DNA from: an uncultured Collinsella sp.
GTDB lineage: Bacteria; Actinomycetota; Coriobacteriia; Coriobacteriales; Coriobacteriaceae
Assembly: GCA_900542365.1 (NCBI GenBank)
Contig: UQNH01000001.1
Location: 33,130 to 97,129 of the forward strand
Direction of reading: 5' to 3'
Length of the DNA stretch: 64,000 nt
Both the position numbers and the translations under genes were made by a program. This document shows positions 7,017 through 64,000 of this stretch, in pieces. The first letter of the stretch is position 1. Every line of letters starts with the position of its first letter. The notes beneath the pieces are model-generated. The model did no database searches, had not been told where the DNA came from, and was given only the letters and a program-made list of their open reading frames with translations.

Positions 7017-7030
7017 AAGGGGCAAAGGCC

Positions 7031-7894: not shown

Positions 7895-8015
7895 CTTAAG
7901 AAAGCGTACGGCGGTCTGGCTATGAGGCCTTGGACAGCCGATGCAAAACAATAAGCGAAACGCGAAAAGGGGGCTCGCCATGTGGTGGGTCCCCTTTTGA
8001 ACATTGGAGAAGACC

Positions 8016-8816
8016 ATGGGTATTAAAGCGTGTGCGGCTGGTTTTTGCTGTGCGGACGTCTATCAAAACATCGGCGTGTTCTATCCGACTGGTAATGGCA
8101 TTGACTGGGGTATCCATCTTGCACGATTGGGCGTTTCGGTATCCGCCGTGTCGGTTGTCGGCAAGGACGAGTACGGAGACAAGATGAGAGAGGCGCTGGC
8201 CGCCGAGGGGTTTGATATCTCTCATCTGCGGGTGGAGGATGGCGACACCTCGGTGATGCTCATGGCATTGAAAGACGGCGTCGATCGCGTGCATCTCGAG
8301 GCAATCGATGGCGTAATGGAGACATATCGTCCGAATGAAGATGACCGGGCGTTTATCCTAGAGCATGACATCATTCATACCGACCTGTTTGGCAATTGTT
8401 TGGACCTCCTGCCCGAGTGGCATAATGCGGGCAAGACGGTGGTTATGGACTTCTCGGTGTTCAGCCAAGATCCCGAATATGCCTGCGAGAATCATTTTCC
8501 CTACGTTGACTACGCATTTATGTCGTTTGAAGATGACACTCCGGAGCTGCGGGACTGGGTACGTCACGCGCAGGAATTGGGGCCGCGCGTTGCGGTTGCC
8601 ACGCTTGGCGAGAAGGGAAGCATTGCCTATGACGGTGAGCGCTTCTATGAGTGCGGGATCGTGCCGGCGGAGAAGGTCGTTAATACCGTGGGTGCCGGCG
8701 ACTCGTATATCGCCGGGTTTACCAAGGGCGTGATCGATGGCCTTGATATTCCGGCGTGTATGAAGGCGGGCGCTGAGCTGTCGTCCCGAGTGATTGGTTC
8801 GTTTGAGCCGTACTAG
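8016..8816 (+). CDS. Second, divergent PfkB-family sugar/fructosamine kinase
   Basis: C-terminal NTVGAGDSYIAGF PfkB signature. Same overall layout as the upstream kinase, but the N-terminal motif has diverged (CCADVY...TGNGIDWGIHL). Confidence 0.65.
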   Translation: MGIKACAAGFCCADVYQNIGVFYPTGNGIDWGIHLARLGVSVSAVSVVGKDEYGDKMREALAAEGFDISHLRVEDGDTSVMLMALKDGVDRVHLEAIDGVMETYRPNEDDRAFILEHDIIHTDLFGNCLDLLPEWHNAGKTVVMDFSVFSQDPEYACENHFPYVDYAFMSFEDDTPELRDWVRHAQELGPRVAVATLGEKGSIAYDGERFYECGIVPAEKVVNTVGAGDSYIAGFTKGVIDGLDIPACMKAGAELSSRVIGSFEPY

Positions 8817-49126: not shown

Positions 49127-49318
49127 GTTGGTGGCTCCTTTCGTGATGCCGTGGCTCGGTAGCACCTGATTGCTGTTGCGCTGCACTATAGCACAGCGAT
49201 ATATGTGCAGGGAAATCTTTTTTGAAAAGATTTCAGCGGCGTTTCCCGCCGGTCAGATGACGGGCTAGGAGGGCAAGGCCGCTCACGCTGTCTCGCCCTC
49301 CTTTAGAACGTGAGGGCC

Positions 49319-51124
49319 TTAGGCCTTCTTGCGTCGATAGATCACGAAGCCGCAGACACCGATGATGACGACGGCGCCAACAGCCATGGCGGCCATGTTG
49401 TTGCCCTCGGACTTCTCCTCGGGGGCCTCTTCCTTCTCGACCTCGGGCTCGGCTACGTCCTCATCGGAGAGCGCCTCGTCGGCGTAGGTGATGGACTCGA
49501 CCAGGCAGTCGTTGTCGGCATCGTAGTCACTCGGGACGAACTTCTCGGAGAAGTCGCCCTTCTTGAGGTAATCGCGCATCTCCTCGAGCATGGCCTTGCA
49601 CTTGACGTAGGTGTTCTTGGTCGCGGCCTTGCCAGCCTTGTTGGCCAGGGCGGTGCGGGCCTCGGTGCCCTCGGCAGCCTGCATGGCCTCGTCGACGGTC
49701 AGGTTCTGCTCGATGAGCTCCTTCTGCAGAGCGTCGAGATAGGCGCGGACGCCGGTGGCGCAGTTGTCGCGGTTCTCCTCGGCGAGCGTGTTGATGTCCA
49801 TGAGGACGTAATTGATGGAGTTCTTGGGCTCCTCGTTGTTCACGACGTCTTCCTCTTCACAGTGATCGAAGGAGACATCCTGATCGCTGAAGTAGGGGCT
49901 GACCTCGGTGAGCAGTGCGGAGTAGAAGGGAATAGCGACGGAGAACTCGGCGTTGGAGAGCATCTCCCACTGGATGGTCGCGATCTCGGGGTCCATGCCC
50001 TGACGGATCTGGAAGGTGTGGATCTCGGTGTTGCGGTTGGAGCCGATGGCATAGGCACCGTCGGTGTTGGCGTTGAGGCCGGCGACATTCTCGCCACGAG
50101 TGGCAAAGCTGCGGATCATCTCGAAGGTGTTCCAGTCGGACTTGCCGGGCTGGAAGAACAGCGGCTGCATCTCGTGGACCAGGGCGCCGGTCGTGGCACG
50201 AGCATCTTCGCGCTCGTCCTTAACGATCTCGTAGTCGGTGCCCTCGGCAAGCGGAGCCATGAAGTAATCGCGGCCCTGGATATAGCGAGACCAAGAATGC
50301 ATGGCCTGCTCGCTAATTTCCTCACCGTAGGTCTGGGCAACGTCGAACTGGCCGTCCTCGAAGTACTTGGCAAAGCCCTTTTCTTCGGGCATGGTCTGAA
50401 TGTCCTTGGAGTGGAGGCAGTTCTCGGTATCGTCGAGGTTGACCTTGTAGTTAAGGTTGCCGATGTTGGGGTTGACCGAGGCGATGTCGTCGGTGAGCTT
50501 CATGGCAATCCACTGATGGCCAGAAAGTCCGGCGAACAGCCAGGTCTCGTTGTTGTCGGCGATGATGACCTGGTCGTTGGTGCAGATGCCCTGCTCGTCG
50601 ACCAGGCTACCGAGGAGCTCGACGCCCTCGCGGGCCGTGGCGCTCTCGCCCAGGATAACGCTGGCGTAATTGTACTCACCGATGCCGGTCTCCTCGGTAA
50701 TGGGGTCGGCCTCCTCAGCCTTCTCGTTGTAGGAGGTGCTCAGCGTGGCAGAGCAGGAGACACCCTTCTCGTTGATGCCAGCCTCGGAATAAGCGTCATA
50801 GCGATCTTCCCACTGAGAGGGGTTGTCGCGAACGAAGGTGTAGCGGTAGGTCGCGCCCTTGGACTTGTACTCAAAGCCTGATTCGAGCGAGCTATACTCG
50901 CTGCCGTCCTTGTGCGCAGGCTCAATGCCAAAGTGCTTGATATAGCGCGGGCTAAAGTCCTCTGCGCGGCCGTAGTACGTGTTGCCGTCCGCCGTGAGTT
51001 TGCTGCCCATGTAGATCTGGGTGCAAGCGAGCGCCGAGGTCGGCATGGCCATAATGGCCGCTGCTCCGAATGCAAGGCTGCAGCCAAGCTTCTTGAGCGT
51101 GTTGACAGGATGAGTAAACCTCAT
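49319..51124 (-). CDS. C69-family dipeptidase with a signal peptide and an acidic linker + TM anchor at the C-terminus
   Basis: The signal ends ...TSALA, followed by the nucleophile Cys in CTQIYMGSKLTADGNTYYGRAEDF. C-terminus ...EKEEAPEEKSEGNNMAAMAVGAVVIIGVCGFVIYRRKKA. RBS GGGAGGG. Confidence 0.8.
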   Translation of the reverse strand: MRFTHPVNTLKKLGCSLAFGAAAIMAMPTSALACTQIYMGSKLTADGNTYYGRAEDFSPRYIKHFGIEPAHKDGSEYSSLESGFEYKSKGATYRYTFVRDNPSQWEDRYDAYSEAGINEKGVSCSATLSTSYNEKAEEADPITEETGIGEYNYASVILGESATAREGVELLGSLVDEQGICTNDQVIIADNNETWLFAGLSGHQWIAMKLTDDIASVNPNIGNLNYKVNLDDTENCLHSKDIQTMPEEKGFAKYFEDGQFDVAQTYGEEISEQAMHSWSRYIQGRDYFMAPLAEGTDYEIVKDEREDARATTGALVHEMQPLFFQPGKSDWNTFEMIRSFATRGENVAGLNANTDGAYAIGSNRNTEIHTFQIRQGMDPEIATIQWEMLSNAEFSVAIPFYSALLTEVSPYFSDQDVSFDHCEEEDVVNNEEPKNSINYVLMDINTLAEENRDNCATGVRAYLDALQKELIEQNLTVDEAMQAAEGTEARTALANKAGKAATKNTYVKCKAMLEEMRDYLKKGDFSEKFVPSDYDADNDCLVESITYADEALSDEDVAEPEVEKEEAPEEKSEGNNMAAMAVGAVVIIGVCGFVIYRRKKA

Positions 51125-51351
51125 AATCCCTCCCAACTGTTGAGACCCCGCAAAGCTATGTGGAATCTCAGCTAATAAATACATCTATTAGCCTATAGGA
51201 AGTCTAAAGAGTATTCATCTATTTCGATGAAATACTCGATGAGCGTCCTAAAATATGCGATGAACGGATAAGAATACTCATTATGTAGCTTTACTTAAAT
51301 AAAGGCACCCTGCAATTACTCTACCTGAATAAAGCACCTTGCACGGGGCGC

Positions 51352-51396
51352 AAAGAAAAATCCCCCGCTGTTTGGCAAATGCATAAACAACGGGGG
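51352..51396 (-). terminator. Terminator of the dagK-like/small-peptide unit
   Basis: RNA CCCCCGUUGUUU / AAACAGCGGGGG (12 bp, 1 G-U pair), 11-nt loop, then AUUUUUCUUUG. Confidence 0.8.
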
Positions 51397-51432
51397 AGAC
51401 GATGATTGGATGAATATCATACCAATGTGGAA

Positions 51433-51525
51433 TTACTTCTTCCGGCGGTGGATCACGTTAATCGCATAGCCGATGAGCATGGCCAAAACGATGACGATAA
51501 AGCCGAGCAGGGGATTGTCGTTCAT
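51433..51525 (-). CDS. 30-aa single-TM peptide, absent from the ORF track
   Basis: GGAGGA is followed by 4 nt and then ATG, immediately after the upstream stop codon. Translation MNDNPLLGFIVIVLAMLIGYAINVIHRRKK. Lies upstream of the operon terminator. Confidence 0.45.
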   Translation of the reverse strand: MNDNPLLGFIVIVLAMLIGYAINVIHRRKK

Positions 51526-51534
51526 GGGGTCCTC

Positions 51535-52452
51535 CTATTTTCCGAGTGGGGAGAATTCGTCGACGATGAGGTCGAGGCATTGCGGAAGCGCGCGGGCTCC
51601 AAAGACGCCCGAGTTGCTGGAGATGATCTCGCCATCGAACTGCATGCCCAGCGACGGGGTGCAGGTGATCTTGGCTTCTTTGGTCTGGATGATCTTAAAC
51701 TGCGGACGGCCGAGCACCTTGCCGGCGGGGTCGAGCGCGGCGGTGATCACGGTCGGGAGCAGCTGCACGGTTTTTACGGGCTCGATGACCGCGATGTCGA
51801 CCATGCCGTCGTTCATGCGACAGTCGGGGAACAGGTTGATGTCGTTTTGGATGACCGAGGTGTTGCCGGCCATGCAGCAGATGCCATCGAGCTCCTCGAC
51901 AATGCCATCGTGCTCAATGGTAAAGTGCGCCACCGTGGGGTTGGGCGTGGCGAGCGCGGAGAGGAAGTAGGCGATCTCGCCAATGTCGTTTTTGGTGGGA
52001 GCGGCCTTCATCATGATTTCGGCGTCGTAGCCCGAGCCGGCGATGATGATAAAGCCGTGGCGCTTCTCGTTGCCGTTTTCGTCGAGCCAAAAGAGCTCGC
52101 CCATGTCCACTTTGACCGTGCGGCCGGCGCGGCAGGCCTTGGCGAGCGCCGCCGCCTCGGGGGCATTGCCGATGTTGTTAAAGAATAGACAGGCCGTGCC
52201 GGAGGGGAAGACGAGCGTGGGGACACCGCACCCGCGCATCTGGTCGAGCACGTTGGAGACGGTACCGTCGCCGCCCGAAACGACCACGCGGTCGAACTCG
52301 CGAACGTCCGCCACCGCGTCCTCGGGCTCCATGCCATCGCCGATAAAACGCATCACGACCTCGTCGCCACCCTGCGCGAGGGCGTGCGTGAACGCGTAGA
52401 TTTCATCTGAGCTGGGGCCCGATGCCGGGTTGTGGATGATAAGGCAGCGCAT
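51535..52452 (-). CDS. Diacylglycerol/lipid kinase family protein (YegS/BmrU-like)
   Basis: MRCLIIHNPASG..., VVVSGGDGTVSNV. Confidence 0.8.
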   Translation of the reverse strand: MRCLIIHNPASGPSSDEIYAFTHALAQGGDEVVMRFIGDGMEPEDAVADVREFDRVVVSGGDGTVSNVLDQMRGCGVPTLVFPSGTACLFFNNIGNAPEAAALAKACRAGRTVKVDMGELFWLDENGNEKRHGFIIIAGSGYDAEIMMKAAPTKNDIGEIAYFLSALATPNPTVAHFTIEHDGIVEELDGICCMAGNTSVIQNDINLFPDCRMNDGMVDIAVIEPVKTVQLLPTVITAALDPAGKVLGRPQFKIIQTKEAKITCTPSLGMQFDGEIISSNSGVFGARALPQCLDLIVDEFSPLGK

Positions 52453-52550
52453 ACTTACGTTCCCGTTCTGTGACTAACCGAGTATAGTTGTAGGGCAATG
52501 CCGATATCCTACCCGTGTTTTTCGGGCCTAACCTTATTCGATGGGTTGAT

Positions 52551-53684
52551 ATGTACATTTCCACACATCAGGCTCTGCTCGACTTTTGCCAGCGCGCTCG
52601 TGAGTTCGACGCGATTGCCGTCGATACCGAGTTTTTGCGCGAGCGCACGTTCCACCCGCGCCTGTGCTTGGTCCAGATTGCCACCCCTGCCGAGAGCGTC
52701 GCGGTCGATCCTTTGGTGATCGACGACCTGTCGCCGCTCGCCGAGCTTATGGGCGATGAGAGTGTGACCAAGGTCTTTCACGCCTGCTCGCAGGATATGG
52801 AGGTTATGCTCCATACCGTGGGCGTGCTGCCGCGTCCCATTTTTGACACGCAGGTGGCCGCCGCCTTCTTGGGCGAGCGCCAGCAGATTTCCTACGGCGC
52901 GCTCGTGCAGACGTTTTGCGGCGTCTCATTGCCCAAGACCGAGTCACTGACCGATTGGTCGCGCCGCCCGCTGACCGACAAACAGATCGAGTACGCGATT
53001 GATGACGTCAAGTACCTGATCGTCGCCTATACCGAGATGATGAGTCGCCTGCGCGAGCTGGGCCGGGTGGACTGGGTACTCGACGAGTTGCGCCCACTGG
53101 CCGACGAGTCGCATTACCGCGCCGATCGTCACGAGGCATTCCGCAAGGTCAAGCGCATCAACTCGTGCAGCCGTCACCAGTTGGGCATCGCGCGCGAGCT
53201 CGCCGCCTGGCGCGAGGACCGCGCCGAGCGCCGCAACATCCCGCGCAAGTGGGTCATGTCCGACGATACGTTGCTGGCGCTCGTCAAGCGCAACCCTGTG
53301 CGCGTTGAGGAGTTCCGTAGCATTCGCGGTACCGATCAGCTGGGGGAGCGCGATGTGGACGGTGCGTTGATGGCCATCAAGCGCGGCGCGAGCTGCCCGC
53401 ACGATCGCCTGCCGCTCATGGTGCGCGGACATCGCCAGATCTCGCCGGAGCTGGAGAGCGTGACCGACCTGATGTATGCACTCATTCGCTTGGTTGCCGA
53501 GCGCTCGGGCGTGGCTACCTCGGTCATTGCCTCACGCGATGACCTGGCCGACTACATTGAGCATCCCGAGCAGAGCCGCCTGCGTGAAGGTTGGCGTTTT
53601 GAGCTTGTGGGCTCGCGCCTGGACGATCTGCTTTCCGGCAACATGGGCCTCACCGTGAAGGACGGAAAGATTGAGTTGTTATAG
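52551..53684 (+). CDS. rnd: Ribonuclease D
   Basis: IAVDTEFLRERTFHPRLCLVQIAT (DEDD exonuclease motif I), YAIDDVKYL, plus an HRDC-like region. Confidence 0.8.
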   Translation: MYISTHQALLDFCQRAREFDAIAVDTEFLRERTFHPRLCLVQIATPAESVAVDPLVIDDLSPLAELMGDESVTKVFHACSQDMEVMLHTVGVLPRPIFDTQVAAAFLGERQQISYGALVQTFCGVSLPKTESLTDWSRRPLTDKQIEYAIDDVKYLIVAYTEMMSRLRELGRVDWVLDELRPLADESHYRADRHEAFRKVKRINSCSRHQLGIARELAAWREDRAERRNIPRKWVMSDDTLLALVKRNPVRVEEFRSIRGTDQLGERDVDGALMAIKRGASCPHDRLPLMVRGHRQISPELESVTDLMYALIRLVAERSGVATSVIASRDDLADYIEHPEQSRLREGWRFELVGSRLDDLLSGNMGLTVKDGKIELL

Positions 53685-53748
53685 GGAAGCCTAGTCGGCT
53701 GAGTGGGTAGAATGCCTCCAACGTGTAACTCGATTCGGAGGAATTCGC

Positions 53749-54453
53749 ATGCCTTATTACTATGGATATGGCTTTGGCATCGACCCGCTGTACCTGCTGG
53801 TTGTTCTTGTTTGTACAGTGCTTGGCCTTGCTGCGCAGAGCTATATCAACTCGACGTACAAGACCTGGTCCAAGGTTCGCTCGGACGGCGACACGGGTGC
53901 CACGGTCGCTCGCCGCATGCTCGACGCCAACGGTTGCAACGCCGTGGGTATCAAGGGCGTCGCCGGTGAGCTCACCGACCATTACAACCCGCAGGATAAC
54001 AACCTATATCTGTCGGATTCCAACCGTTCGGGCGGGTCGGTCGCAAGCGTTGCCGTCGCCTGCCACGAGGCGGGCCATGCTGCCCAGCGTCAAAGCGGTT
54101 ACGCCATGATGAAGGTACGCACCGCCCTCGTGCCGGTCGTCAACTTTACCCAGAACACTTGGACCATCGTGTTGCTCATGGGCCTGTTCATGAACGTCGC
54201 GGGGCTCACGACCCTCGCGCTGGTCTTCTTCTCGTTTAGCGTGCTGTTCCAACTGGTTACGCTGCCGGTCGAGATTGATGCCAGCCGCCGCGCCGTGGCG
54301 TACATCGAGCAGTCGGGCATGAGCTCCAAGCAGGTCAACGGTGCCAAGAAGGTCCTGACGGCAGCCGCGCTCACCTATGTTGCCGCAGCGCTCACCTCGA
54401 TTATTCAGCTGCTCTACCTTATGGCTCGTTACGACAGAAACTCCAACCGATAA
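53749..54453 (+). CDS. Zinc metallopeptidase (Zn_peptidase_2 family), membrane-associated
   Basis: MPYYYGYGFGIDPLYLLVV... N-terminus and HEAGHA. Confidence 0.8.
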   Translation: MPYYYGYGFGIDPLYLLVVLVCTVLGLAAQSYINSTYKTWSKVRSDGDTGATVARRMLDANGCNAVGIKGVAGELTDHYNPQDNNLYLSDSNRSGGSVASVAVACHEAGHAAQRQSGYAMMKVRTALVPVVNFTQNTWTIVLLMGLFMNVAGLTTLALVFFSFSVLFQLVTLPVEIDASRRAVAYIEQSGMSSKQVNGAKKVLTAAALTYVAAALTSIIQLLYLMARYDRNSNR

Positions 54454-54541
54454 CAAATTGGGTCGCTGGGCGCCGTGGGGATTTGTGTCCCTGCGGCGCT
54501 GTACTATGTGTTGGACTTGAATTTGCGCAGGGCCGGAGCCC

Positions 54542-56020
54542 ATGTGCACGATGACGAAAGGGGGCTGCGTGGGAGGCTGGAATCTGACCGGCAATACCGT
54601 TTCCGCCGAGTTCGACGGATCGGACGAGCAGGAGCGCAAGGAGCTCAGCGTGAGTCAGGCGGTGGAGATCGCTGCCGGTGCGCTCGATGCCATTCCGCAG
54701 CTGAGTGTCCTGGGCGAGGTCACGGGCTTCCGTGGCCCCAATGCCCGAAGCGGCCACTGCTACTTCCAAATCAAGGACGACTCGGCGGCCGTCGACTGCA
54801 TCATCTGGAAGGGCGCCTACCTTAAGCGCACCTTCGATCTGCGCGACGGCATGCAGGTGAGCTTTAAGGGCAGCTTCAATCTCTACAAGCCTACGGGTCG
54901 CATGAGCTTCGTCGCCCGCTCGTTCTCGCTGGCGGGGGAGGGCTTGCTGCGTCAGCAGGTGGCTCAGTTGGCCGAAAAGCTGCGTCGCGAAGGTCTGATG
55001 GACGAGGCGCGCAAACGTCGCATTCCGGTGTTTTGCTCGCGCGTGGCAGTCGTCACCTCGCTTTCGGGTGCCGTCATCGACGACGTCAAGCGCACACTGC
55101 GCCGTCGCAACCCGCTCGTCGAGCTCGTCTGCGTGGGCGCCAAGGTTCAAGGTGAGGGCGCGCCTGCAGAGCTTATTGAAGGCTTACGCCGCGCCGCTGC
55201 CATTACGCCGGCGCCCGATTGCATTTTGCTCGTGCGTGGCGGTGGCTCCTTCGAGGACCTCATGACTTTTAACGACGAGGAGCTTGCCCGCGCGGTGGCA
55301 GCCTGCCCCGTGCCTGTGGTGACGGGCATTGGGCATGAACCCGATACCTCGATTTGCGACATGGTGAGCGACCGCCGCGCCTCCACGCCAACGGCGGCGG
55401 CAGAATCGGTGGCGCCGGCTATGACGGAGTTGGCCGACGTGCTCGAGGCGCGTCATCAGCGTCTGGGCGCCGCGGTGGCTTCGATGATTGGGTCGGATCA
55501 GGTCGACCTGGAGATGCTCGATCAGCGCGGTCGCCGCGCCTGGGACACCTATACGGCTCGACTGGGCGACGCGCTCGATGCAGCCGCGTGCCGCCCGTGC
55601 CTCAACGATCCAACGTTTATGGTCGAGCGCCGCGAGTCCGAGCTTGCCCTGACGGCCGATCGTCTGTCCGGCGCCATAACGCGTTCGGTTGGGACCTTCC
55701 GCTCCAACTTCGAGCGTCTGCCCGAGCGCTTGATCGCAAGCACCTCAGGGCTCGACGGCAAGCGCCATGCGCTCATGCTCGCGAGTTCTCGCCTGGAGCA
55801 TCAGGGGCGCACGATGCTCAGCAAACCCGCGTCCGACCTGGGCCGTGCGGCAGCCTCGCTCGATGCCCTGTCGCCGCTCAAGGTGCTTGCCCGCGGCTAT
55901 TCCATCGCGTACAGCGACGATGGTGTGGCTACGAGCGCCAAGACCTTTAAGCCCGGCGACGCCATTCGTGTGCGCATGGCAGACGGCAACGTGGCGGCAA
56001 CGGTCGATATGGTCGAGTAG
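54542..56020 (+). CDS. xseA: Exodeoxyribonuclease VII large subunit
   Basis: OB-fold GEVTGFRGPNARSGHCYFQIKD, VVTSLSGAVIDD, VRGGGSFEDL. The start codon is uncertain. Confidence 0.85.
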   Translation: MCTMTKGGCVGGWNLTGNTVSAEFDGSDEQERKELSVSQAVEIAAGALDAIPQLSVLGEVTGFRGPNARSGHCYFQIKDDSAAVDCIIWKGAYLKRTFDLRDGMQVSFKGSFNLYKPTGRMSFVARSFSLAGEGLLRQQVAQLAEKLRREGLMDEARKRRIPVFCSRVAVVTSLSGAVIDDVKRTLRRRNPLVELVCVGAKVQGEGAPAELIEGLRRAAAITPAPDCILLVRGGGSFEDLMTFNDEELARAVAACPVPVVTGIGHEPDTSICDMVSDRRASTPTAAAESVAPAMTELADVLEARHQRLGAAVASMIGSDQVDLEMLDQRGRRAWDTYTARLGDALDAAACRPCLNDPTFMVERRESELALTADRLSGAITRSVGTFRSNFERLPERLIASTSGLDGKRHALMLASSRLEHQGRTMLSKPASDLGRAAASLDALSPLKVLARGYSIAYSDDGVATSAKTFKPGDAIRVRMADGNVAATVDMVE

Positions 56021-56062
56021 ACCGCGTTTCACAGTGATAGACCCTTAGGAAAGGAAACAGAT

Positions 56063-56329
56063 ATGGCAGAGAAGACCCCGGTCGAGCAGCTTACGTACAA
56101 GCAGGCCTCGCAGGAGCTGGAGCTCATCATCCGCAGCCTGGAGTCGGGCGATATGGAGCTCGAGGAGTCGCTCGAGAGCTATACCCGCGGCGTCGAGCTC
56201 CTCAAGAGCCTGCGCACCCGCCTGTCCGATGCCGAGCAGAAGGTCTCGGTGCTCCTTAAGGACGTCGACGGCAACGACGTGCTCGCCGACGGCGAAGCCG
56301 CCAACACCGACGACAGTCTCTCGTTCTAG
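56063..56329 (+). CDS. xseB: Exodeoxyribonuclease VII small subunit
   Basis: YKQASQELELIIRSLESGDMELEESLESYTRGVELLK. Confidence 0.85.
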   Translation: MAEKTPVEQLTYKQASQELELIIRSLESGDMELEESLESYTRGVELLKSLRTRLSDAEQKVSVLLKDVDGNDVLADGEAANTDDSLSF

Positions 56330-56378
56330 CCATCCCGACCAAATATAATTACCTTGGTCTGCGAGAAAGGAACCAACC

Positions 56379-56714
56379 ATGTGTGATTGCATCTTCTGCA
56401 AAATCGCCAACCACGAGATCCCCTCGACCGTTGTCTATGAGGACGACCAGGTCATCGCCTTCGACGACCTCAATCCCCAGGCGCCGGTCCACACGCTCGT
56501 GATCCCCAAGAAGCACTACAGCGACATCGCCGACAACGTGCCGGCCGAGACCATGGGCGCCATGGCCCACGCCATCCAGGAGGTTGCCAAGGCCAAGGGC
56601 CTGGAGGACGGTTTCCGCGTCATCTCCAACAAGGGCGTCAACGCCGGCCAGACCGTCATGCACTTCCACATGCACGTCCTCGGCGGCAAAAACCTGGGCG
56701 AGAACCTGCTCTGA
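56379..56714 (+). CDS. HIT-family (histidine triad) protein
   Basis: CIFCKI... and HFHMHVLGG. Confidence 0.85.
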   Translation: MCDCIFCKIANHEIPSTVVYEDDQVIAFDDLNPQAPVHTLVIPKKHYSDIADNVPAETMGAMAHAIQEVAKAKGLEDGFRVISNKGVNAGQTVMHFHMHVLGGKNLGENLL

Positions 56715-56909
56715 AAACGGCTCACACGACGTTTTCGTCGCCGGTTGAGACCATCTTTTCTCTGCTAATGCTAACCCGGAGATGCCTGTTCAAGTGGGTG
56801 TCTCCGGGCTCGTTATTTGTTGCGAACCGGTGACAATTCGAATTCACATGAGTAGCCAGGTCGCGGCCGATCTACGCTAACGCCTTGAAATCGAGTTAAG
56901 GATTGTTTG

Positions 56910-57806
56910 ATGAATTTGTCGCAATTGGAGTACCTCGATGCCGTTGTAAGACTGGGCGGTGTTCGCCGAGCAGCTTCTGCGCTTCATGTAACGCCGCAAG
57001 CCGTCTCGGTCGCAATTAAAAAACTTGAATCCGAACTGGGCGTTAAGCTGATTGATCGCGCAGGGCGTGAGACCGCCCCCACTTCAGAGGGAAGAGAATT
57101 CGCTCTCCGTGCTCAGGACGTTTTGAACCAGATTGATGGGCTCAAGCATTTTGCCAGCCAAGATCTTCGAGGCGTTTCTCCTGATGGCCACTTTCGACTT
57201 TACGTTCCTTGTCTGCACGGTAGGGGCGAACTGTTTTCTGACGATTGCTACGATAGGTTTGTAGAGGAGCATCCTGAGATCCACCTAGACGTCTGGCATC
57301 AGCCGAGTGCGGCATGCTTTGAATCATTGATGATGGGCATTTCGGATGCCGCCGTTTCGTTTGAAGAACCTCGCGACGATAGTTTGCATTACAAAAATCT
57401 CGGAGAGAAGAGCCTTAAGGTACTTGCCTACTCCGACCATCCCTCTTTATCCCGCTCGATTCGAATCGAAGACCTCTTTGACGGCAGGGTTGCCGTTCCC
57501 ATTAACTTGGGACCTTGTTTGACTGCCCTTTCAAAGTGTCCGGAAACTCAACTTCATGATTTGAAATTCCGTGACGTGGAGTATTCGAACCTCGAGCAAT
57601 GCCGTTTTCTAAGTTCAGGAGGAAGAATACTCGCGTTTTCTGGCTCCCAGATCTGTGCAGAAAACTCATCAATCTTGGAACTCGACATTAGCGCTTCTAA
57701 AGAGTGCTACCTTCCGGTCTATTTCTGTTATAGAAAAAACGAATGGACGGAAAGGCATCGTACTGTGTTTTGGCATCTTATGAAAACTCTATGCGATATT
57801 AGATAG
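56910..57806 (+). CDS. LysR-family transcriptional regulator (first gene of the AT-rich islet)
   Basis: MNLSQLEYLDAVVRLGGVRRAASALHVTPQAVSVAIKKLESELGVKLIDR. RBS AAGGA. Confidence 0.85.
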   Translation: MNLSQLEYLDAVVRLGGVRRAASALHVTPQAVSVAIKKLESELGVKLIDRAGRETAPTSEGREFALRAQDVLNQIDGLKHFASQDLRGVSPDGHFRLYVPCLHGRGELFSDDCYDRFVEEHPEIHLDVWHQPSAACFESLMMGISDAAVSFEEPRDDSLHYKNLGEKSLKVLAYSDHPSLSRSIRIEDLFDGRVAVPINLGPCLTALSKCPETQLHDLKFRDVEYSNLEQCRFLSSGGRILAFSGSQICAENSSILELDISASKECYLPVYFCYRKNEWTERHRTVFWHLMKTLCDIR

Positions 57807-57916
57807 GTGCAGGGTAAAAATTATTTGTCGGTCTCTTCCTTCTAATTGACGGTTTTCGAGTTATTTTCCATTCAAGCGATCGCCATGTTCTGATGACAGG
57901 ATAGAAAGGATTGCGA

Positions 57917-57994
57917 ATGACTCCCCTTAACAAAACAAACACCGACGTAAGCTCTGAACGCGTTGTCTGTATGTACAACGCTTGCAAAGCTTAG
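57917..57994 (+). CDS. Candidate RiPP precursor peptide (25 aa, two Cys), absent from the ORF track
   Basis: GAAAGGA is followed by 7 nt and then ATG. Translation MTPLNKTNTDVSSERVVCMYNACKA. Lies 55 nt upstream of the first rSAM/SPASM gene and is followed by a hairpin plus T8. Confidence 0.6.
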   Translation: MTPLNKTNTDVSSERVVCMYNACKA

Positions 57995-58005
57995 CCTTGA
58001 CGCGA

Positions 58006-58037
58006 GGGGCGGCTCATTTCTGGGCCGCCTTTTTTTT
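58006..58037 (+). terminator. Hairpin plus T-tract between precursor ORF and rSAM genes (attenuator-type terminator)
   Basis: GGCGGC (58008-13) / GCCGCC (58024-29) with a 10-nt loop, followed by TTTTTTTT (58030-37). Confidence 0.6.
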
Positions 58038-58049
58038 GAAGGGGATCAA

Positions 58050-59420
58050 ATGCCATTAATTAAACTGAATGAACTCGAACTCATTAGCTTGGACGAGAAT
58101 AATTCCGTTCTTATCAATTTGATGAATGGAAACGCCGACATTGTGAATGCGGCTGTTGCGCTTGCTATTCGTTCAGGCTGTTTTGATGGGCTTGATATTG
58201 ATACGCTCGATTTACTGATCGAGCGCGGCTATGTCTTTGACTCTGAGCATGCACGTGACAAATTTGTTGAACGAATCGATAAACGGTTGGCTTGGGAGTC
58301 GACTAGGGAAATACCAAATTTCATTGTCGTCCCAACCTATTCATGCAACCTTGATTGCTACTACTGTTTTGAAAGGGCGAGTATTTCGCGTGGCATTCGC
58401 CTTAATAAAGAAATTGAATTAGATGTCGAGCGTTTTTTCTCGTTTGTGGCCAAAGTCCTTTCTGAGTTTGAGAATGGCTATGGGGATTTTGATATGTCGA
58501 AAGTGCTGGTAACAATTACGGGCGGAGAACCTCTACAAGATTTTACGTTTCGGACAATTGAAAAGCTTCTCATAGGCTGCAGAAATAGGGGCTTTAGGGT
58601 TTCGTTCGTTACGAACGCGCTTGCTGTTCCAGAGTATTTGCATCTACTCTCTGATTACGTCTCCGTTATTGATGATATGCAAATAACGTTAGATGGCGCC
58701 CAAAGGGAGCATGATTCAATTAGGGTGGCCATTGACGGTAAACCGACCTTCAATCGAATCGTCCACTCAATTGAGCTGCTAAGCTGTCTTGATCTTAACT
58801 TGCAGGTAAGAATCAACGTGACGCGACGAAATGTAGGCACGTTGACTGAAATTGGACCTCTCATTCAAAAGTTTGATCGAGTTCTATTCTATGTTTACCT
58901 TATGCAGCAAGAGGGACGTTGTCAGAGTGAGAACGTCCTTGATGAGCTTGAAGGAATTAAAGCCCTAGACAGGCTAAAGGATGAAAACGGCGACCTCGAT
59001 AACCTTCTTGTTGAGTATCACGGGAGAAAGTTGATCGAATCAATATTTAGTGGCAAGAAGTTTCATCCAAAAATTAAAACTTGCACTGCTATGTGTAATC
59101 AATTCATATACGACCAATTTGGCTATGTATATAAATGCTGGTGGGCCATGGGCAATCGGTCTCGAGCCGTGGGTTTCGATGACGATAACGGAATTGCATG
59201 GAATAAGAAGCTGCTGTCTTACTACCGGGATCGCTCTGTGCTTAAAATGGATGCCTGCCGAGTTTGCCGTTATAGATATGTTTGTGGCGGCGGATGCACT
59301 GGGAGGCTTACCCTATATGACATGAGGAAAGGCTCTGTATCATGCCCGGATTTTCATTCGATTTTGGACTATGAAGTGCATCGGCACTGCGCCTCTCGTA
59401 GCGATGAGGGGTGTTGCTGA
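58050..59420 (+). CDS. Radical SAM/SPASM-domain peptide-modifying enzyme 1
   Basis: CNLDCYYC at 58344-58367 (CX3CX2C). C-terminal SPASM motif CRVCRYRYVCGGGC (CX2CX5CX3C). About 95 aa N-terminal extension, possibly RRE. RBS GAAGGGGA. Confidence 0.8.
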   Translation: MPLIKLNELELISLDENNSVLINLMNGNADIVNAAVALAIRSGCFDGLDIDTLDLLIERGYVFDSEHARDKFVERIDKRLAWESTREIPNFIVVPTYSCNLDCYYCFERASISRGIRLNKEIELDVERFFSFVAKVLSEFENGYGDFDMSKVLVTITGGEPLQDFTFRTIEKLLIGCRNRGFRVSFVTNALAVPEYLHLLSDYVSVIDDMQITLDGAQREHDSIRVAIDGKPTFNRIVHSIELLSCLDLNLQVRINVTRRNVGTLTEIGPLIQKFDRVLFYVYLMQQEGRCQSENVLDELEGIKALDRLKDENGDLDNLLVEYHGRKLIESIFSGKKFHPKIKTCTAMCNQFIYDQFGYVYKCWWAMGNRSRAVGFDDDNGIAWNKKLLSYYRDRSVLKMDACRVCRYRYVCGGGCTGRLTLYDMRKGSVSCPDFHSILDYEVHRHCASRSDEGCC

Positions 59421-60706
59421 TGCTTGCGCAAGCGGACTTTACGACGGTTGTCGAATTTAGCAGGGTGTCGGTGTTGGCTAATTATCTGTTGGGCACCCTA
59501 GATGCTATTGATGCCGATTATATTGACGAGGATCATTCGATTTCTGTAGAGACTCTCGATAAGGCCGAATCGGCCTATCTTCAAAAACGGGGGCACCTGC
59601 AAGTCCGGGACCATGAACAGCGTGAGTTAATATGTCGTCTCTGGAGTTCCTATCTGCAAAAGCACGAAACTACTTGCTATGTCTATCTACAATTAACCCA
59701 TGAATGCAACTTGCGTTGCTCCTATTGCTTTCAAGCTTCAAATGGCTACCAGCATCGGACTATGGCGCCGGGCACCCTTCATAATATTGAATCGTGCTTA
59801 AAGAGATTGCTTAAGACATCGTGCGATCCTGCTCGGATTGTTATCGTTTTATATGGCGGAGAGCCATTACTGCCTAAAAATATGAATCTGGTTTTAGAGG
59901 CTTTAGACATATGCAAAAGACATGGCTTTCGACTTCGGGTAATCACTAATGGGACTCAACTGCCTCATTATCTAGAAATTCTGAAGCGAAGTATTGGAGT
60001 GTTGGACGGTGTTACCGTTACGCTGGACGGCGCTCGCTTTTCACATGATAAAGTTCGAAGGACGCTTGATGGGGAGGGGACATATGATCGGGTTGTCTCT
60101 TCTAGTAAAGCTGCTATGCGAAATGGGATTGACGTAACGGTTCGCCTAAATGTATCCCAAGATAATATCGATATGCTGAGACATTCCAATTGGAGGTACT
60201 CTGACTTTAAGTACGAGATTCATCGTGTTGAATATCCTCTATACGAAAAGGCCGTTTCTTTCTGGCAATTGCTAGAACTATGCTTGAATGGCTATATATC
60301 TTTGACAGAGCTTGCCGTGAATCAAGTCGGCTATTTTTACCAGATATTTGAAGAAGATCAAGCGCATTATCCTCTATTCGGTGACTGTCTATCTGGGTCG
60401 GTGCTTCTGTTTTCTCCAGAGGGGGCTGTCTATGATTGTAACGAAGCCGGTACCGATTCGGTTCCATTGGGTATGGTTGAGGATGATTCCTGTTCATATT
60501 TTGAAAGTGTTGAAAGATACCTTAGCGGCCGAGCCTTTCAGATGGAAATCCCCTGTTCAGAGTGCCCTGCCTCTCCTGTTTGCGGAGGCGCCTGTCGCGT
60601 GAGGCGCGGGGATTCCTCTTCTTATAAGAAATGCCCGTATTACTCTGATATTTCCGATATGCTAAAAAGATATATATCCTGGAAAACTGGGCTTCAGGGG
60701 GTTTAA
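59420..60706 (+). CDS. Radical SAM/SPASM-domain peptide-modifying enzyme 2 (paralogue of enzyme 1)
   Basis: CNLRCSYC at 59705-59728. SPASM motif CSECPASPVCGGAC. The ATG overlaps the upstream TGA (TGATG); GTG-59411 is an alternative start. Shares GGEPL, GFR..TN and TLDGA..HD blocks with enzyme 1. Confidence 0.8.
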   Translation: MLAQADFTTVVEFSRVSVLANYLLGTLDAIDADYIDEDHSISVETLDKAESAYLQKRGHLQVRDHEQRELICRLWSSYLQKHETTCYVYLQLTHECNLRCSYCFQASNGYQHRTMAPGTLHNIESCLKRLLKTSCDPARIVIVLYGGEPLLPKNMNLVLEALDICKRHGFRLRVITNGTQLPHYLEILKRSIGVLDGVTVTLDGARFSHDKVRRTLDGEGTYDRVVSSSKAAMRNGIDVTVRLNVSQDNIDMLRHSNWRYSDFKYEIHRVEYPLYEKAVSFWQLLELCLNGYISLTELAVNQVGYFYQIFEEDQAHYPLFGDCLSGSVLLFSPEGAVYDCNEAGTDSVPLGMVEDDSCSYFESVERYLSGRAFQMEIPCSECPASPVCGGACRVRRGDSSSYKKCPYYSDISDMLKRYISWKTGLQGV

Positions 60707-60707
60707 A

Positions 60708-61901
60708 ATGCTTAAAAGGGTCATACTGCCCTACATGCTGTTCGTGTTCCTGTCGAACTTCAGCACGATCCTCTATTTCTTGACCGTCTATCTTGAGCAC
60801 GAGGGTTTCTCGCTCACGACTATCTCAGCAATGCTGCTTGCCTACCAGATCGGCAAGTTCGTCTCAGAGGTGCCTACTGGGTATATTGCTGACCGCTATG
60901 GCCGAAAAGCGAGCGGGCTGCTGGGTGTTGCTGGTCTAATTGCATACTACCTTGCGCTGCTCTTTGTGCAATCGCCGACTGTGCTTCTGATCGCCTTTGT
61001 CGTCAAAGGCATTTCTCTTGCCTGCATCAGTGGCTCTATTGAAGCCATCTACATTGACAGTGTCCCCCAAGAAGCTTTGGTTTCCCTAAACGTTATTGAG
61101 CGATTCGTTTTCTATGCCTCCTATGCGATTTCAGCGTTCCTTGGCGGCATGATTTCGGCTGCGCAGGCTTATCGGGTTGGTCTTTCGTGCGATATCGTAG
61201 CTATGGTTTTAACGCTCGCTGTCGTTGCCCTGATTCACGAACCTCGCGACGGTTCAAAGACGATGGCGCGGGATGACCATGTGACCGTTGGGCAAATAAC
61301 TCAAGCGATTTTGTACAACCCCTGCCTAATTGAGGCGTATGTCATGGACGTTTCGCAGGCGTTTGCCTTCGTTTCACTCGAGGATTTTTTCACGCTGATG
61401 TTAAACGAGAGGGGGATGAACTCCGTTGCCGCAGGCGCGACGGTTGCGGTCCAACTCTTATGCTCTGCTGGTCTCGGGCTGGCCATTCCATCGCTGCTTA
61501 AGAGAATCGATCAACGACGCTTCGCTCGTTTAACGGGCTGCACGAGGTATTTGCTGACTGCGCTCTTTCTGCTGCCATTTATGCCGCGCTCGCTTCTACC
61601 TCTGTTGTATATTCTGCAGACTATTGCGTACGTTTTCTTTGCCCCGATTAAATATTCCATTTTCCAGAGCAATGCACCTGCGCAGTTTCGCTGTTCTCTC
61701 ATTTCGGTTCAGAGCTTGATGGTTTCGGTTGGAGCGATCTTGTTCTATGCGTTCAACGCGCTGTTTGTTTCGTCTATTGGGGTCTCTTCATCCATATTAG
61801 TGGCGCTTCTTCTGTCTGCGCTCCTTTATATTCCGGCGCTTTTCAAGCTTACGAAAGACCGCGGTGGTTCCCGTTCGAAGAATGTGTCTCTCAGGGCTTG
61901 A
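60708..61901 (+). CDS. MFS transporter
   Basis: ADRYGRK motif, about 12 TM segments. The ATG lies 1 nt after the rSAM2 stop codon. Confidence 0.8.
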   Translation: MLKRVILPYMLFVFLSNFSTILYFLTVYLEHEGFSLTTISAMLLAYQIGKFVSEVPTGYIADRYGRKASGLLGVAGLIAYYLALLFVQSPTVLLIAFVVKGISLACISGSIEAIYIDSVPQEALVSLNVIERFVFYASYAISAFLGGMISAAQAYRVGLSCDIVAMVLTLAVVALIHEPRDGSKTMARDDHVTVGQITQAILYNPCLIEAYVMDVSQAFAFVSLEDFFTLMLNERGMNSVAAGATVAVQLLCSAGLGLAIPSLLKRIDQRRFARLTGCTRYLLTALFLLPFMPRSLLPLLYILQTIAYVFFAPIKYSIFQSNAPAQFRCSLISVQSLMVSVGAILFYAFNALFVSSIGVSSSILVALLLSALLYIPALFKLTKDRGGSRSKNVSLRA

Positions 61902-61997
61902 TATATCAGCTCCCGCTTAGGACGAACGTACGTTTAGGGGTATTATTGAAGCGTATGTAACCTGGCGGCGCCACACCGCCTGTTAGTAGGGAGACAC

Positions 61998-63176
61998 ATG
62001 AACGTTCTGGTCGTCAACGCGGGATCTTCGACCCTTAAGTATCAGGTCATCGATACCAAGTCCCACAAGGTGTCCGCAAAGGGCTCCTGCGAGCGCGTCT
62101 GCTTTACCGGTGGTACCTTCACCCATGCTGCCAACGGCTCCAAGAAGGTGACCGAGAACATCGAGTTCCCCGACCACAAGGTCGCCATCGAGGTCGTCCT
62201 GAAGGACCTCGAGGCCAACGGCGTCAAGATCGAGGGCATTGGCCACCGTATCGTTCAGGGCGGTTGGTACTTTGGCGATTCCTCCCTCGTCGACGAGGAC
62301 GTCCTCGCCAAGATCCGCGAGGTCGCTCCGCTCGCCCCGCTGCACAACAACCCCGAGGCCAACGTTATCGAGTACTGCCTGGAGCAGTATCCCGACCTGC
62401 CCAACGTCACGGTCTACGATACTGCTTTCCACTTCAATATGCCCGAGGTCGCCAAGACCTACGCCCTGCCCAAGGACGTCTGCGACAAGCTGCACATCCG
62501 TAAGTACGGCGCCCACGGCACCAGCTACCGCTACATCTCCAAGAAGGTTGCCGAGATGACCAACGGCGAGGCTCGCAAGGTCGTCGTGTGCCACATCGGT
62601 TCCGGCGCTTCCCTGTGCGCCATCGAGGACGGCAAGTGCATGGACACCACCATGGGCTTGACGCCGCTCGACGGTGTCATGATGGGCACCCGCTGCGGCT
62701 CCATCGACCCGGCCACCGTGTGCTACCTGCAGCGCGAAGGCGGCTACACCTTCGACGAGGTCGACGAGATGATGAACAAGAAGTCCGGCCTTTTGGCTGT
62801 GACCGGTGGCAAGACCAACGACTGCCGCAACGTTGAGGAGCTCGCCGCTGCCGGCGACCCCGAGGCCCAGCTCGCCTTCGATATGTTCGTCTACAAGATT
62901 GCCGCCAAGGCCGCCGAGATGGCTACCTCCATGTGCGGCATGGACACCCTGGTCTTTACCGCCGGCATCGGCGAGCACGCTCCGGCCGTCCGCGCTGGCG
63001 TGGCCGATCGTCTGGCCTTTATGGGCGTCAAGATGGACCATGCCCGCAACGCTCTGCGCGGCGACGGCGCTTGGTGCCTGTCAGCCAAGGATTCCAAGGT
63101 CAAGATTTTCGTCATCCCCACGGACGAGGAGTTCATGATCGCTTCCGACGTCGAGCGCATCGTCAACGGCAAGTAA
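61998..63176 (+). CDS. ackA: Acetate kinase
   Basis: MNVLVVNAGSSTLKYQVID, GHRIVQGG, KYGAHGTSYRY. Confidence 0.9.
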   Translation: MNVLVVNAGSSTLKYQVIDTKSHKVSAKGSCERVCFTGGTFTHAANGSKKVTENIEFPDHKVAIEVVLKDLEANGVKIEGIGHRIVQGGWYFGDSSLVDEDVLAKIREVAPLAPLHNNPEANVIEYCLEQYPDLPNVTVYDTAFHFNMPEVAKTYALPKDVCDKLHIRKYGAHGTSYRYISKKVAEMTNGEARKVVVCHIGSGASLCAIEDGKCMDTTMGLTPLDGVMMGTRCGSIDPATVCYLQREGGYTFDEVDEMMNKKSGLLAVTGGKTNDCRNVEELAAAGDPEAQLAFDMFVYKIAAKAAEMATSMCGMDTLVFTAGIGEHAPAVRAGVADRLAFMGVKMDHARNALRGDGAWCLSAKDSKVKIFVIPTDEEFMIASDVERIVNGK

Positions 63177-63340
63177 TTGATGCAAGGGGAGGGGACTGGA
63201 TGGCCTTGTGCCGTTCAGCCCCCCTTTATGCTCTTTGGGCGAAGAGTTTAATAGATATTTATTGAATTCTGATAACTTCTTATTAAGGGTACGGCCGCCT
63301 TATAGGTTTGCCGACCGTACTGTAATCACGAAGGAGTCTC

Positions 63341-64000
63341 ATGAACGTACTTGTTGTCAACGCCGGCAGCTCGAGCCTTAAATATCAGCTTTTGGATACC
63401 GATACCCGCGAGGTTTTCGCCAAGGGCAACTGCGAGCGTATCGGCTCGGAGATGGGCATTTTTGGCCACTCCGAGAACGGTGGTGCCAAGCTGACCGAGG
63501 AGATTCCTTTTCCCGATCATCGCTGCGCCATTGCGCGCGTGCTCGAGGAGCTCGAGAAGACCGACTTTACGATCGATGGCATCGGCCACCGTATCGTTCA
63601 GGGTGGCTGGCACTTCGATGATTCCGCGGTCGTCGACGATGAGGTCATGGCTAAGATCCTTGAGGTGGCTCCGCTCGCCCCGCTGCACAATTACGGCGAG
63701 GCCGCGGCGATTGAATATTGCCGCGAGAAGTATCCGGAGCTGCCCAACGTGGCTGTTTTCGACACCTCGTTCCACATGACCATGCCCGAGGTCGCCTACA
63801 CCTACGCCCTGCCCAAGGACGTGTGCGACAAGTACCACGTGCGCAAATATGGCGCGCACGGTACGAGCCACCGTTACGAGTGGATGATGGCCAAGGAGAT
63901 CCTGGGTACGCGCTGCCACCGTCTGCTTTCGTGCCATCTGGGCAACGGCGCCTCGCTTGCCGCCATCGAGGACGGTGTGTGCCGCGATACCACGATGGGC
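63341..64000 (+). CDS. Second acetate/propionate kinase paralogue, 5' part (runs off the window)
   Basis: RBS AAGGAG precedes ATG-63341. MNVLVVNAGSSSLKYQLLDTDT..., GHRIVQGGWHF, KYGAHGTSHRY. Open to the window end and not in the ORF track. Confidence 0.85.
   Translation, partial: MNVLVVNAGSSSLKYQLLDTDTREVFAKGNCERIGSEMGIFGHSENGGAKLTEEIPFPDHRCAIARVLEELEKTDFTIDGIGHRIVQGGWHFDDSAVVDDEVMAKILEVAPLAPLHNYGEAAAIEYCREKYPELPNVAVFDTSFHMTMPEVAYTYALPKDVCDKYHVRKYGAHGTSHRYEWMMAKEILGTRCHRLLSCHLGNGASLAAIEDGVCRDTTMG

Follow-up and report, generated by a model that had tools for sequence, protein, structure and literature searches.

The 64-kb stretch of Collinsella DNA analysed here (hereinafter designated the window) carries a 25-codon open reading frame (ORF) at positions 57917-57994 that very probably encodes the precursor of a ribosomally made, post-translationally modified peptide (RiPP) altered by radical S-adenosylmethionine (rSAM) enzymes. 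By the measure of sequence comparison, the ORF is a real protein-coding gene under strong purifying selection, because all 11 related two-enzyme loci (hereinafter designated clade A) retain it and its substitutions fall overwhelmingly at third codon positions. It lies in a five-gene same-strand block encoding a LysR-family regulator, the peptide, two rSAM/SPASM maturases (hereinafter designated rSAM-1 and rSAM-2) and a transporter of the major facilitator superfamily (MFS). Taken together, we hold with moderate confidence that the peptide is the precursor of an undescribed two-enzyme rSAM RiPP whose product is probably thioether-cross-linked and exported. The original prediction had placed an unannotated RiPP precursor before its modifying enzymes, and this arrangement stands, as the ORF, the C-x4-C spacing of its cysteines and the hairpin behind it recur upstream of every orthologous rSAM gene examined.

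The probable precursor ORF and its conservation

The elements that bear directly on the precursor are located as follows.

57904-57910, + strand: Shine-Dalgarno (SD) sequence GAAAGGA, separated from the ATG of the peptide ORF by 6 nt
57917-57994, + strand: precursor peptide gene, 25 aa, from ATG at 57917 to TAG at 57992-57994 (sequence reading and pattern check)
58004-58037, + strand: intrinsic-terminator-like element between precursor and enzymes, comprising a stem-loop (58004-58033) and T8 (58030-58037) (fold and sequence)
58050-59420, + strand: rSAM/SPASM maturase 1, 456 aa, with CNLDCYYC, a 7-Cys SPASM domain and an N-terminal domain resembling a RiPP recognition element (RRE)
59411 (GTG) or 59420 (ATG) to 60706, + strand: rSAM/SPASM maturase 2, ~428-431 aa, with CNLRCSYC and a Pfam Radical_SAM match

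Read from ATG to TAG, the frame encodes MTPLNKTNTDVSSERVVCMYNACKA, the 25-aa peptide originally proposed, and the GAAAGGA proposed as its SD is present at the measured gap given above. The pattern C.Y..CK occurs once in the six frames of the window, in this ORF, which is contained in the operon's sole sizeable intergenic space, and no other candidate precursor ORF exists in the cassettes. The peptide would divide into a leader of approximately residues 1-16, with invariant L4, N5 and N8, and a core of approximately residues 17-25, with invariant C18, Y20, C23 and K24. An antisense ORF of 62 aa (57799-57987) was dismissed as a gene because it is not conserved across related loci; antisense ORFs in general lack such conservation.

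The available ORF list does, as had been noted, run the rSAM-1 ORF backwards to a TTG at 57963, crossing the peptide ORF in another frame. The true start of rSAM-1 is ATG 58050, preceded by its own SD (GAAGGGGA, 58038-58045), since homologues of 448-456 aa begin at the equivalent Met. Some public gene calls likewise start at an upstream TTG, reaching back past the hairpin and overlapping the peptide ORF (P0004, 469 aa, and P0006, 485 aa; sites L083 6001-7410 and L085 1284-2741), and the precursor is missed in databases because of this backward extension. The exact 25-aa peptide is not in a collection of 15 billion proteins and is thus unannotated; neither Pfam nor NCBIfam returned a family for the peptide or for five relatives, and no NCBIfam precursor model matched. 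Over-extension of this kind amounts to a systematic annotation blind spot, hiding the key RiPP gene from a collection of that size.

To compare loci, contigs coding rSAM-1 relatives were fetched; clade A is drawn from L081-L090, L175 and L177, with 11 related two-enzyme loci counted. An equivalent short ORF with the right SD spacing lies directly upstream of rSAM-1 in 11/11 clade-A loci. Homologous loci devoid of a short ORF had been named at the outset as evidence that would speak against a precursor, and the ORF is present in every orthologous locus examined. The rSAM-1 relatives inspected span 38-87% identity (87, 76, 74, 54, 52 and ~38-44%), and their hosts span 34-58% GC. The peptide ORFs have 24-25 codons, apart from one locus that gives 38 aa when read from its only ATG; in this 58% GC contig (L175), use of the only in-frame ATG adds a 13-residue N-terminal extension.

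The clade-A peptides are MTPLNKTNTDVSSERVVCMYNACKA, MTPLNKTNADVSSERVVCMYNACKA, MKPLNKTNTEVKSERTVCMYNACKA, MKSLNKTNADAKSERIVCMYNACKA and MKSLNKNNTDVRPDRSACAYHLCK, and further MKALNENNNTVSVANSVCLYKHCK, MKPLNENNANVESERIVCSYHLCK, MKPLNEGNKELTSSSDDCMYKLCK and ...IKPLNQNSSVLEPERVICRYKDCKE. In an alignment of seven of them, M1, L4, N5, N8, C18, Y20, C23 and K24 are invariant, and the peptides of L175 and L177 retain L, N, N, C, Y, C and K. The C-x4-C spacing of the two-Cys motif originally singled out (CMYNAC) is kept in all of these loci, but that motif was drawn too narrowly: the shared core motif is C-x-Y-x-x-C-K, in which Tyr and Lys are also invariant.

Among six Collinsella-type loci, substitutions in the peptide ORF are overwhelmingly synonymous, with nonsynonymous divergence (dN) of 0-0.14 against synonymous divergence (dS) of 0.14 to saturation (dN/dS ~0.02-0.1); between the window and L084, 14/18 differences in the ORF fall at codon position 3. 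The AGAAAGG at the SD is unchanged in 6/6 of these aligned loci, and distant loci carry GGAGG-type SDs at a spacing to the peptide ORF equal to that in the window. With a length of only 25 codons and no entry among gene calls or databases, the ORF might be taken for a chance intergenic frame without function; its retention in 11/11 orthologous loci, its low dN/dS and its correctly spaced SD already refute this explanation by comparison and leave it a negligible probability.

Related peptides are also found in a sister clade that has a single enzyme (hereinafter designated clade B; L091 and L171-L174; hosts of 23-26% GC; rSAM 27-31% identical). A short ORF lies directly upstream of the rSAM gene in 5/5 clade-B loci, and the single rSAM is orthologous to rSAM-1 (212-268 bits, against 79-113 bits to rSAM-2). 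The encoded peptides retain the leader motif [ILF]-N-x-N and terminate in C-x-Y-H (MKSINTNIVSVEKISSTNASCMYHNASCMYHA, with a tandem NASCMYH x2; MDAINSNIIVEVKDVCSVKSTCHYHV; and (M)ESFNTNVLTDPKELVSEACSCRYHV). The cassettes are found at 4820-8421 in L171, in L172, in L173/L174 and at 4313-7851 in L091; L173/L174 do not translate with code 11, which makes an alternative genetic code probable for them.

The gene that follows in the annotated clade-B loci codes for a protein of 678-684 aa, which in L171/L172 has EF-G-type domains and best matches tet_protect, the family of tetracycline ribosomal-protection GTPases (539 bits in L171, against a cutoff of 775). A 668-aa ORF occupies the position of this TetM-like gene in L091. 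The clusters also encode a methyltransferase with weak similarity to the daptide type and an alanine racemase; some have an M29 peptidase (aminopeptidase) as well. The gene content of these loci suggests that the clade-B scaffold may target the ribosome, with self-resistance, and the ribosomal-protection-type gene provides a testable target hypothesis. The comparative set, with eight distinct cores from clade A and three from clade B, provides a ready motif for genome mining.

The terminator-like hairpin and T8 that had been described after the ORF are borne out by sequence and fold. A G/C stem formed by GGGGCGGCTC (58006-58015) and GGGCCGCC (58022-58029) is followed by T8, and the segment 57995-58045 folds at -25.6 kcal/mol (ViennaRNA; z = -3.97, 0/200 shuffles as stable); a terminator scan of the window did not list the hairpin at 58004-58037, though the ViennaRNA fold shows it. 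A hairpin follows the stop codon in 14/14 loci, both in clade A and in 23-26% GC loci of unrelated sequence, beginning 2-12 nt past the peptide stop (~35 nt in L175) and usually with a T-rich stretch next. In 10/14 loci, no more than 2 of 200 dinucleotide shuffles reach an equally stable fold. Among six close relatives, 97.9% of hairpin cells pair, and a single pair has changed in a compensatory way, from G-C to A-U; the evidence for the hairpin is positional conservation rather than covariation. A known riboswitch or small RNA was rejected, an Rfam scan of 56700-58200 giving only a sub-threshold match to sbrA over the hairpin (21.5 vs 45 bits, E = 0.16). By analogy with bacteriocin and RiPP operons, the hairpin and T8 would end most transcripts, leaving more precursor mRNA than enzyme mRNA, and read-through would supply the enzymes; a partial (leaky) terminator that sets the precursor-to-enzyme ratio is plausible.

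A small ORF, a terminator hairpin 2-12 nt past its stop in most loci and then an operon is also the classic layout of an attenuator, in which the ORF would be a regulatory leader peptide, ORF and hairpin would act together, and the true substrate would be encoded elsewhere. The protein sequence itself speaks against such a role, with L, N, N, C, Y, C and K conserved over hosts of 34-58% GC, the C-x-Y-H unit reaching hosts of 23-26% GC, no regulatory codon run and a dN/dS far below 1. Minimum-free-energy folds give a single terminator stem and no anti-terminator, alternative pairings having been explored only shallowly. Moreover, RRE-bearing maturases need a leader-containing substrate, for which the cassettes hold no other candidate ORF, and the tandem core repeat in clade B is typical of RiPP substrates. 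We therefore regard the attenuator explanation as very improbable and retain the ORF as a RiPP precursor.

Maturases and candidate cross-links

Besides Pfam Radical_SAM, rSAM-1 matches the TIGR04085 SPASM model (41 bits vs a cutoff of 27), and its invariant cysteines comprise C99, C103 and C106 of the CX3CX2C motif and C345, C363, C403, C406, C412, C416 and C432. rSAM-2 lies directly downstream of rSAM-1 in all clade-A loci and is a distant paralogue (25% identical across its full length, E = 3e-30) in which the N-terminal ~85 residues and the same cysteines align. Neither maturase reaches any NCBIfam cutoff. The best model is CefB (NF038107) for rSAM-1, at 123.7 bits vs 600 (124-141 bits for rSAM-1 and its relatives), and PapB (NF047865) for rSAM-2, at 97.8 bits vs 340, and most of the top-ranked NCBIfam neighbours (CefB, TIGR04463, Clo7bot, PapB, SCIFF and CcpM) mature Cys-containing peptides.

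CteB (5WGG) is the best solved relative of both maturases by sequence, profile and fold. The rSAM-1 profile finds it in the PDB at 2.4e-23, with the alignment entering CteB at residue 44, in its N-terminal domain, and it is also the best PDB sequence match of rSAM-2 (1.5e-16). A Foldseek search with the AlphaFold2 model of rSAM-1 (mean predicted local distance difference test score (pLDDT) 87.9) returned CteB, anSME, TigE and SuiB as top matches. Residues 9-58 of this model form three strands followed by helices (beta-beta-beta-alpha-alpha) at pLDDT >90, and the full-length Foldseek alignments reach the RRE-bearing CteB, SuiB and TigE. Judging from the model, the N-terminal domain of the maturases is likely an RRE.

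The enzyme family is rare, with ~5 clusters at >=39% identity and 155 at E <=1e-30 among 1.84 billion 50%-identity representatives. Profile scans of genome and metagenome contigs with the rSAM-1 family gave, among the matches listed, only relatives of <=30% identity, of which L091 was useful; in a locus from Absconditicoccaceae (L001), no recognisable precursor was found under code 11 or code 25.

These features are consistent with the following pathway. A promoter upstream of 57917, probably controlled by LysR, would drive an operon of the peptide, rSAM-1, rSAM-2 and MFS genes. The polar leader (M-x-x-L-N-x-x-N...) would be bound by the N-terminal RRE-like domain of both maturases. rSAM-1 would modify the C18-x-Y20 unit, because single-enzyme clade B keeps only the rSAM-1 orthologue and only C-x-Y-(H), and rSAM-2 would modify the clade-specific C23-K24 unit at the C-terminus. 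Each enzyme may form one Cys-derived thioether of the sactionine or ranthionine type, yielding a bicyclic core of ~8-9 residues, (V)C-M-Y-N-A-C-K-A. We propose thioether chemistry because both Cys are invariant and because of the enzyme families that lie nearest, and consider the chances of such cross-links to be roughly even. A housekeeping protease is proposed to remove the leader, since no dedicated peptidase is encoded in the cassette, and the MFS pump would export the product. Its most likely role, by analogy with the TetM-like gene of clade B, would be that of an exported bioactive peptide for competition; the product may act in signalling instead.

The same precursor could, alternatively, undergo chemistry outside the sactipeptide and ranthipeptide types, such as a new link between Cys and Tyr or between Tyr and Lys (through an aryl C-S bond, or through a C-C bond as in the Lys-Trp link of streptide or the cyclophanes of triceptides) or an anSME-like Cys oxidation, which would constitute a new class. 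Tyr20 and Lys24 are as invariant as both Cys, the unit common to clade B is C-x-Y, the structural neighbours include SuiB (Lys-Trp C-C), anSME and TigE, and DynA and the cyclophane synthases YhhB/XyeB/FxsB appear among weak hidden Markov model (HMM) matches, with no known family cutoff reached. By contrast, CteB, PapB, CefB and Clo7bot, the top relatives in sequence and profile rankings, form thioethers or mature Cys-rich peptides, and in known cyclophane motifs the aromatic residue comes first (Omega1-X2-X3) and does not follow a Cys. We regard this alternative as a serious minority candidate, and give a similarly limited probability to chemistry of any kind that involves the invariant Tyr or Lys and is not of a known thioether type. 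A particular version, in which the C-x-Y-x-x-C-K and C-x-Y-H peptides would form a new RiPP class with an undescribed cross-link on the invariant Tyr (e.g., Cys-Tyr) and the paralogue would close a C-terminal Cys/Lys ring, is conceivable, if unlikely. A new class, if true, would comprise an 8-9-residue bicyclic peptide from a common human-gut actinobacterium with a ribosome target suggested by the clade-B TetM-like gene, and the locus is possibly a source of new radical-SAM chemistry.

Several observations weigh against our preferred reading of an exported, thioether-cross-linked RiPP made by two enzymes. All family HMM scores lie far below their cutoffs, and the structural neighbours include enzymes that catalyze quite unlike reactions (oxidation by anSME, cyclopropanation by TigE and C-C bond formation by SuiB). 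The N-terminal domain of the maturases has no Pfam PqqD/RRE match. The cassette contains no leader peptidase or immunity gene, and bioactivity is argued from the other clade, whose TetM-like match is itself below the cutoff of 775. As for the hairpin, that of L085 folds no better than shuffles, and close relatives give statistically weak covariation (88/500 shuffles).

The low-GC island, its LysR gene and its presumed exporter

The remaining elements of the block are listed below.

56907-57806, + strand: LysR-family regulator, first gene of the low-GC island (Pfam HTH_1 1.2e-19, LysR_substrate 2e-10)
57846-57851, + strand: TTGACG, candidate -35 box, a weak assignment; TGAC invariant in six Collinsella-type loci
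57872-57883, + strand: conserved block TCAAGCGATCGC, including the palindrome GCGATCGC, between the candidate -35 box and the SD
60708-61901, + strand: MFS transporter, presumed exporter of the mature product (Pfam MFS_1 2.3e-26)

The LysR gene occupies the same place in L081-L085, L088 and L177 (37-91% identical to the window copy) and is often, not always, part of the clade-A cassette. Wherever a clade-A locus extends far enough, the MFS gene comes third in the cassette, with 33-87% identity to the window copy. A promoter scan did not call the TTGACG at 57846, and no convincing -10 box was found; a LysR-type inverted repeat around the -35 box was rejected, as it is not conserved between loci. 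Within the block at 57872-57883, CAAGCGATCGC is unchanged in 6/6 Collinsella-type loci, and nearby non-coding DNA diverges. The block may be an operator or an element of the 5' untranslated region, and the LysR protein and CAAGCGATCGC probably regulate transcription.

The island (56900-61900) has 43-52% GC, against 59-67% in the flanks (52000-56800 and 62000-64000). By exact-sequence look-up, the window falls within Collinsella, in a genome of the C. aerofaciens group; its acetate kinase and the C. aerofaciens enzyme are identical, and rSAM-1 exactly matches WP_117799053.1, recorded for 'unclassified Collinsella'. Comparison of the window with three loci of the same species gave the following identities.

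Flanking XseB, HIT and AckA proteins: 97-100%
Flanking DNA: 90-97% at the nucleotide level
Island DNA: 67-90% at the nucleotide level
rSAM-1 protein: 74-87%
rSAM-2 protein: 73-85%
Peptide: 96-100%

The 78-nt peptide ORF itself has 88-97% nucleotide identity between these conspecific loci, with changes that are almost only synonymous. On these sequence identities, the island is diverging fast or recombining, and the precursor is its most constrained part.

Outside the window, the cassette of L175 starts ~200 bp past the 3' end of a tRNA gene (...GGTTCGAACCCCCTATTCTCCACCA), which suggests integration at a tRNA locus, and that of L088 adjoins a conjugation gene; the two neighbours are consistent with mobility. 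L086 has a third, divergent rSAM/SPASM gene upstream (675-1940, - strand), the best match of which is a StsB-type sactisynthase (126 bits, below cutoff), and an ABC transporter after the MFS gene (6274-8732, + strand). Two tandem acetate-kinase paralogues with ~72% mutual nucleotide identity follow the island in L081 (9876-12397) and L084 (10010-12547). The window contains the first acetate kinase at 61998-63176, and BLAST similarity to it continues (63326-64000) up to the window end. The GC-rich flanks (49310-56000, both strands) show many long opposite-strand or alternative-frame ORFs, e.g., 49310-50881 (+), 54004-54639 (-) and 61983-63041 (-), and these long ORFs appear to be GC-driven shadows and not genes. 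Bacteria of the C. aerofaciens group are abundant human-gut commensals, and a strain-variable RiPP locus in them is a concrete target in the search for a new gut bioactive peptide.

Comparison with known systems

Ranthipeptide systems (CteA-CteB, 5WGG; PapA-PapB, freyrasin) share with this locus an RRE-like domain, an rSAM core, a full SPASM domain and Cys-containing substrates. PapB links Cys to the carbon alpha to a carboxylate, the C-terminal carboxylate included (PMC12373016), a preference that may fit a core ending one or two residues after C23 (C-K-COOH). However, the maturases of the window score 73.6 bits vs 425 with SCIFF (TIGR03974) and 62.7 and 97.8 bits vs 340 with PapB (NF047865), and the peptide has two Cys in 24-25 aa, in contrast to six in ~45 aa for SCIFF. 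It also differs from PapA in having no C-x3-D/E and no acidic acceptor in the conserved core. Invariant Tyr and Lys, two paralogous maturases per 25-aa peptide, and an MFS exporter in place of a peptidase/ABC system further set the cassette apart from ranthipeptides.

CefA/CefB (NF038107) resembles the window system in having two Cys five residues apart, and CefB is the top-scoring family for rSAM-1. The score is nevertheless one-fifth of the 600-bit cutoff, and the window peptide contains a single C-x4-C pair and no repeat. To our knowledge, the CefB, TIGR04463 and Clo7bot (TIGR04334) families are biochemically uncharacterised.

Sactipeptide systems (subtilosin SboA/AlbA, thuricin CD, SkfA/SkfB and StsA/StsB) likewise place a small structural gene directly upstream of one or more rSAM/SPASM maturases, and their operons typically have a stem-loop behind the structural gene. 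In contrast, their cores are usually much longer than 8-9 residues, their clusters usually encode proteases or ABC transporters, and the AlbA, StsB, RumMC and SkfB models score the window maturases far below cutoffs. Two rSAM enzymes are also found in the thuricin CD cluster (PMC12093266).

The original prediction further suggested, from the small size of the peptide, a signal or cofactor-like product in the manner of PqqA or MftA. The PqqA/PqqE and MftA/MftC systems do combine a precursor of ~23-30 aa, a modified Tyr near the C-terminus and rSAM/SPASM enzymes, and the precursor here has only 24-25 aa, with the conserved core residues in its last 7-8 positions, no dedicated protease or immunity gene and an adjoining LysR gene, as in many metabolite-responsive operons. 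However, the suggestion is unsupported by motifs and accessory genes alike. E14 and Y20 are six apart, E14 is not invariant and no E-x3-Y is present; the peptide ends in C-K(-A), with no C-terminal V-Y, unlike the G-V-Y of MftA; the neighbours are only the LysR, two rSAM and MFS genes, with no pqqB/C/D or mftB/D/E/F at the loci; and the MftC model (TIGR03962) gives 57.8 bits vs a cutoff of 265. The RRE-like domain is fused to the maturase, in contrast to the separate PqqD and MftB. An MFS exporter in every cassette long enough to show it, a patchy, horizontally moving island unlike that expected of a core cofactor, and the link of clade B to a ribosomal-protection-type gene likewise argue against a cofactor-like or signalling small molecule, which we consider improbable.

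Searches of the literature and of family and database names found nothing on the peptide or the maturases, although few subscription-journal papers were covered and an earlier description is possible. The peptide family has no name in the databases searched and is set apart from the systems compared above by the absence of a peptidase, an unusually short precursor, an MFS exporter and two paralogous rSAM/SPASM enzymes with RRE-like domains per ~8-residue core.

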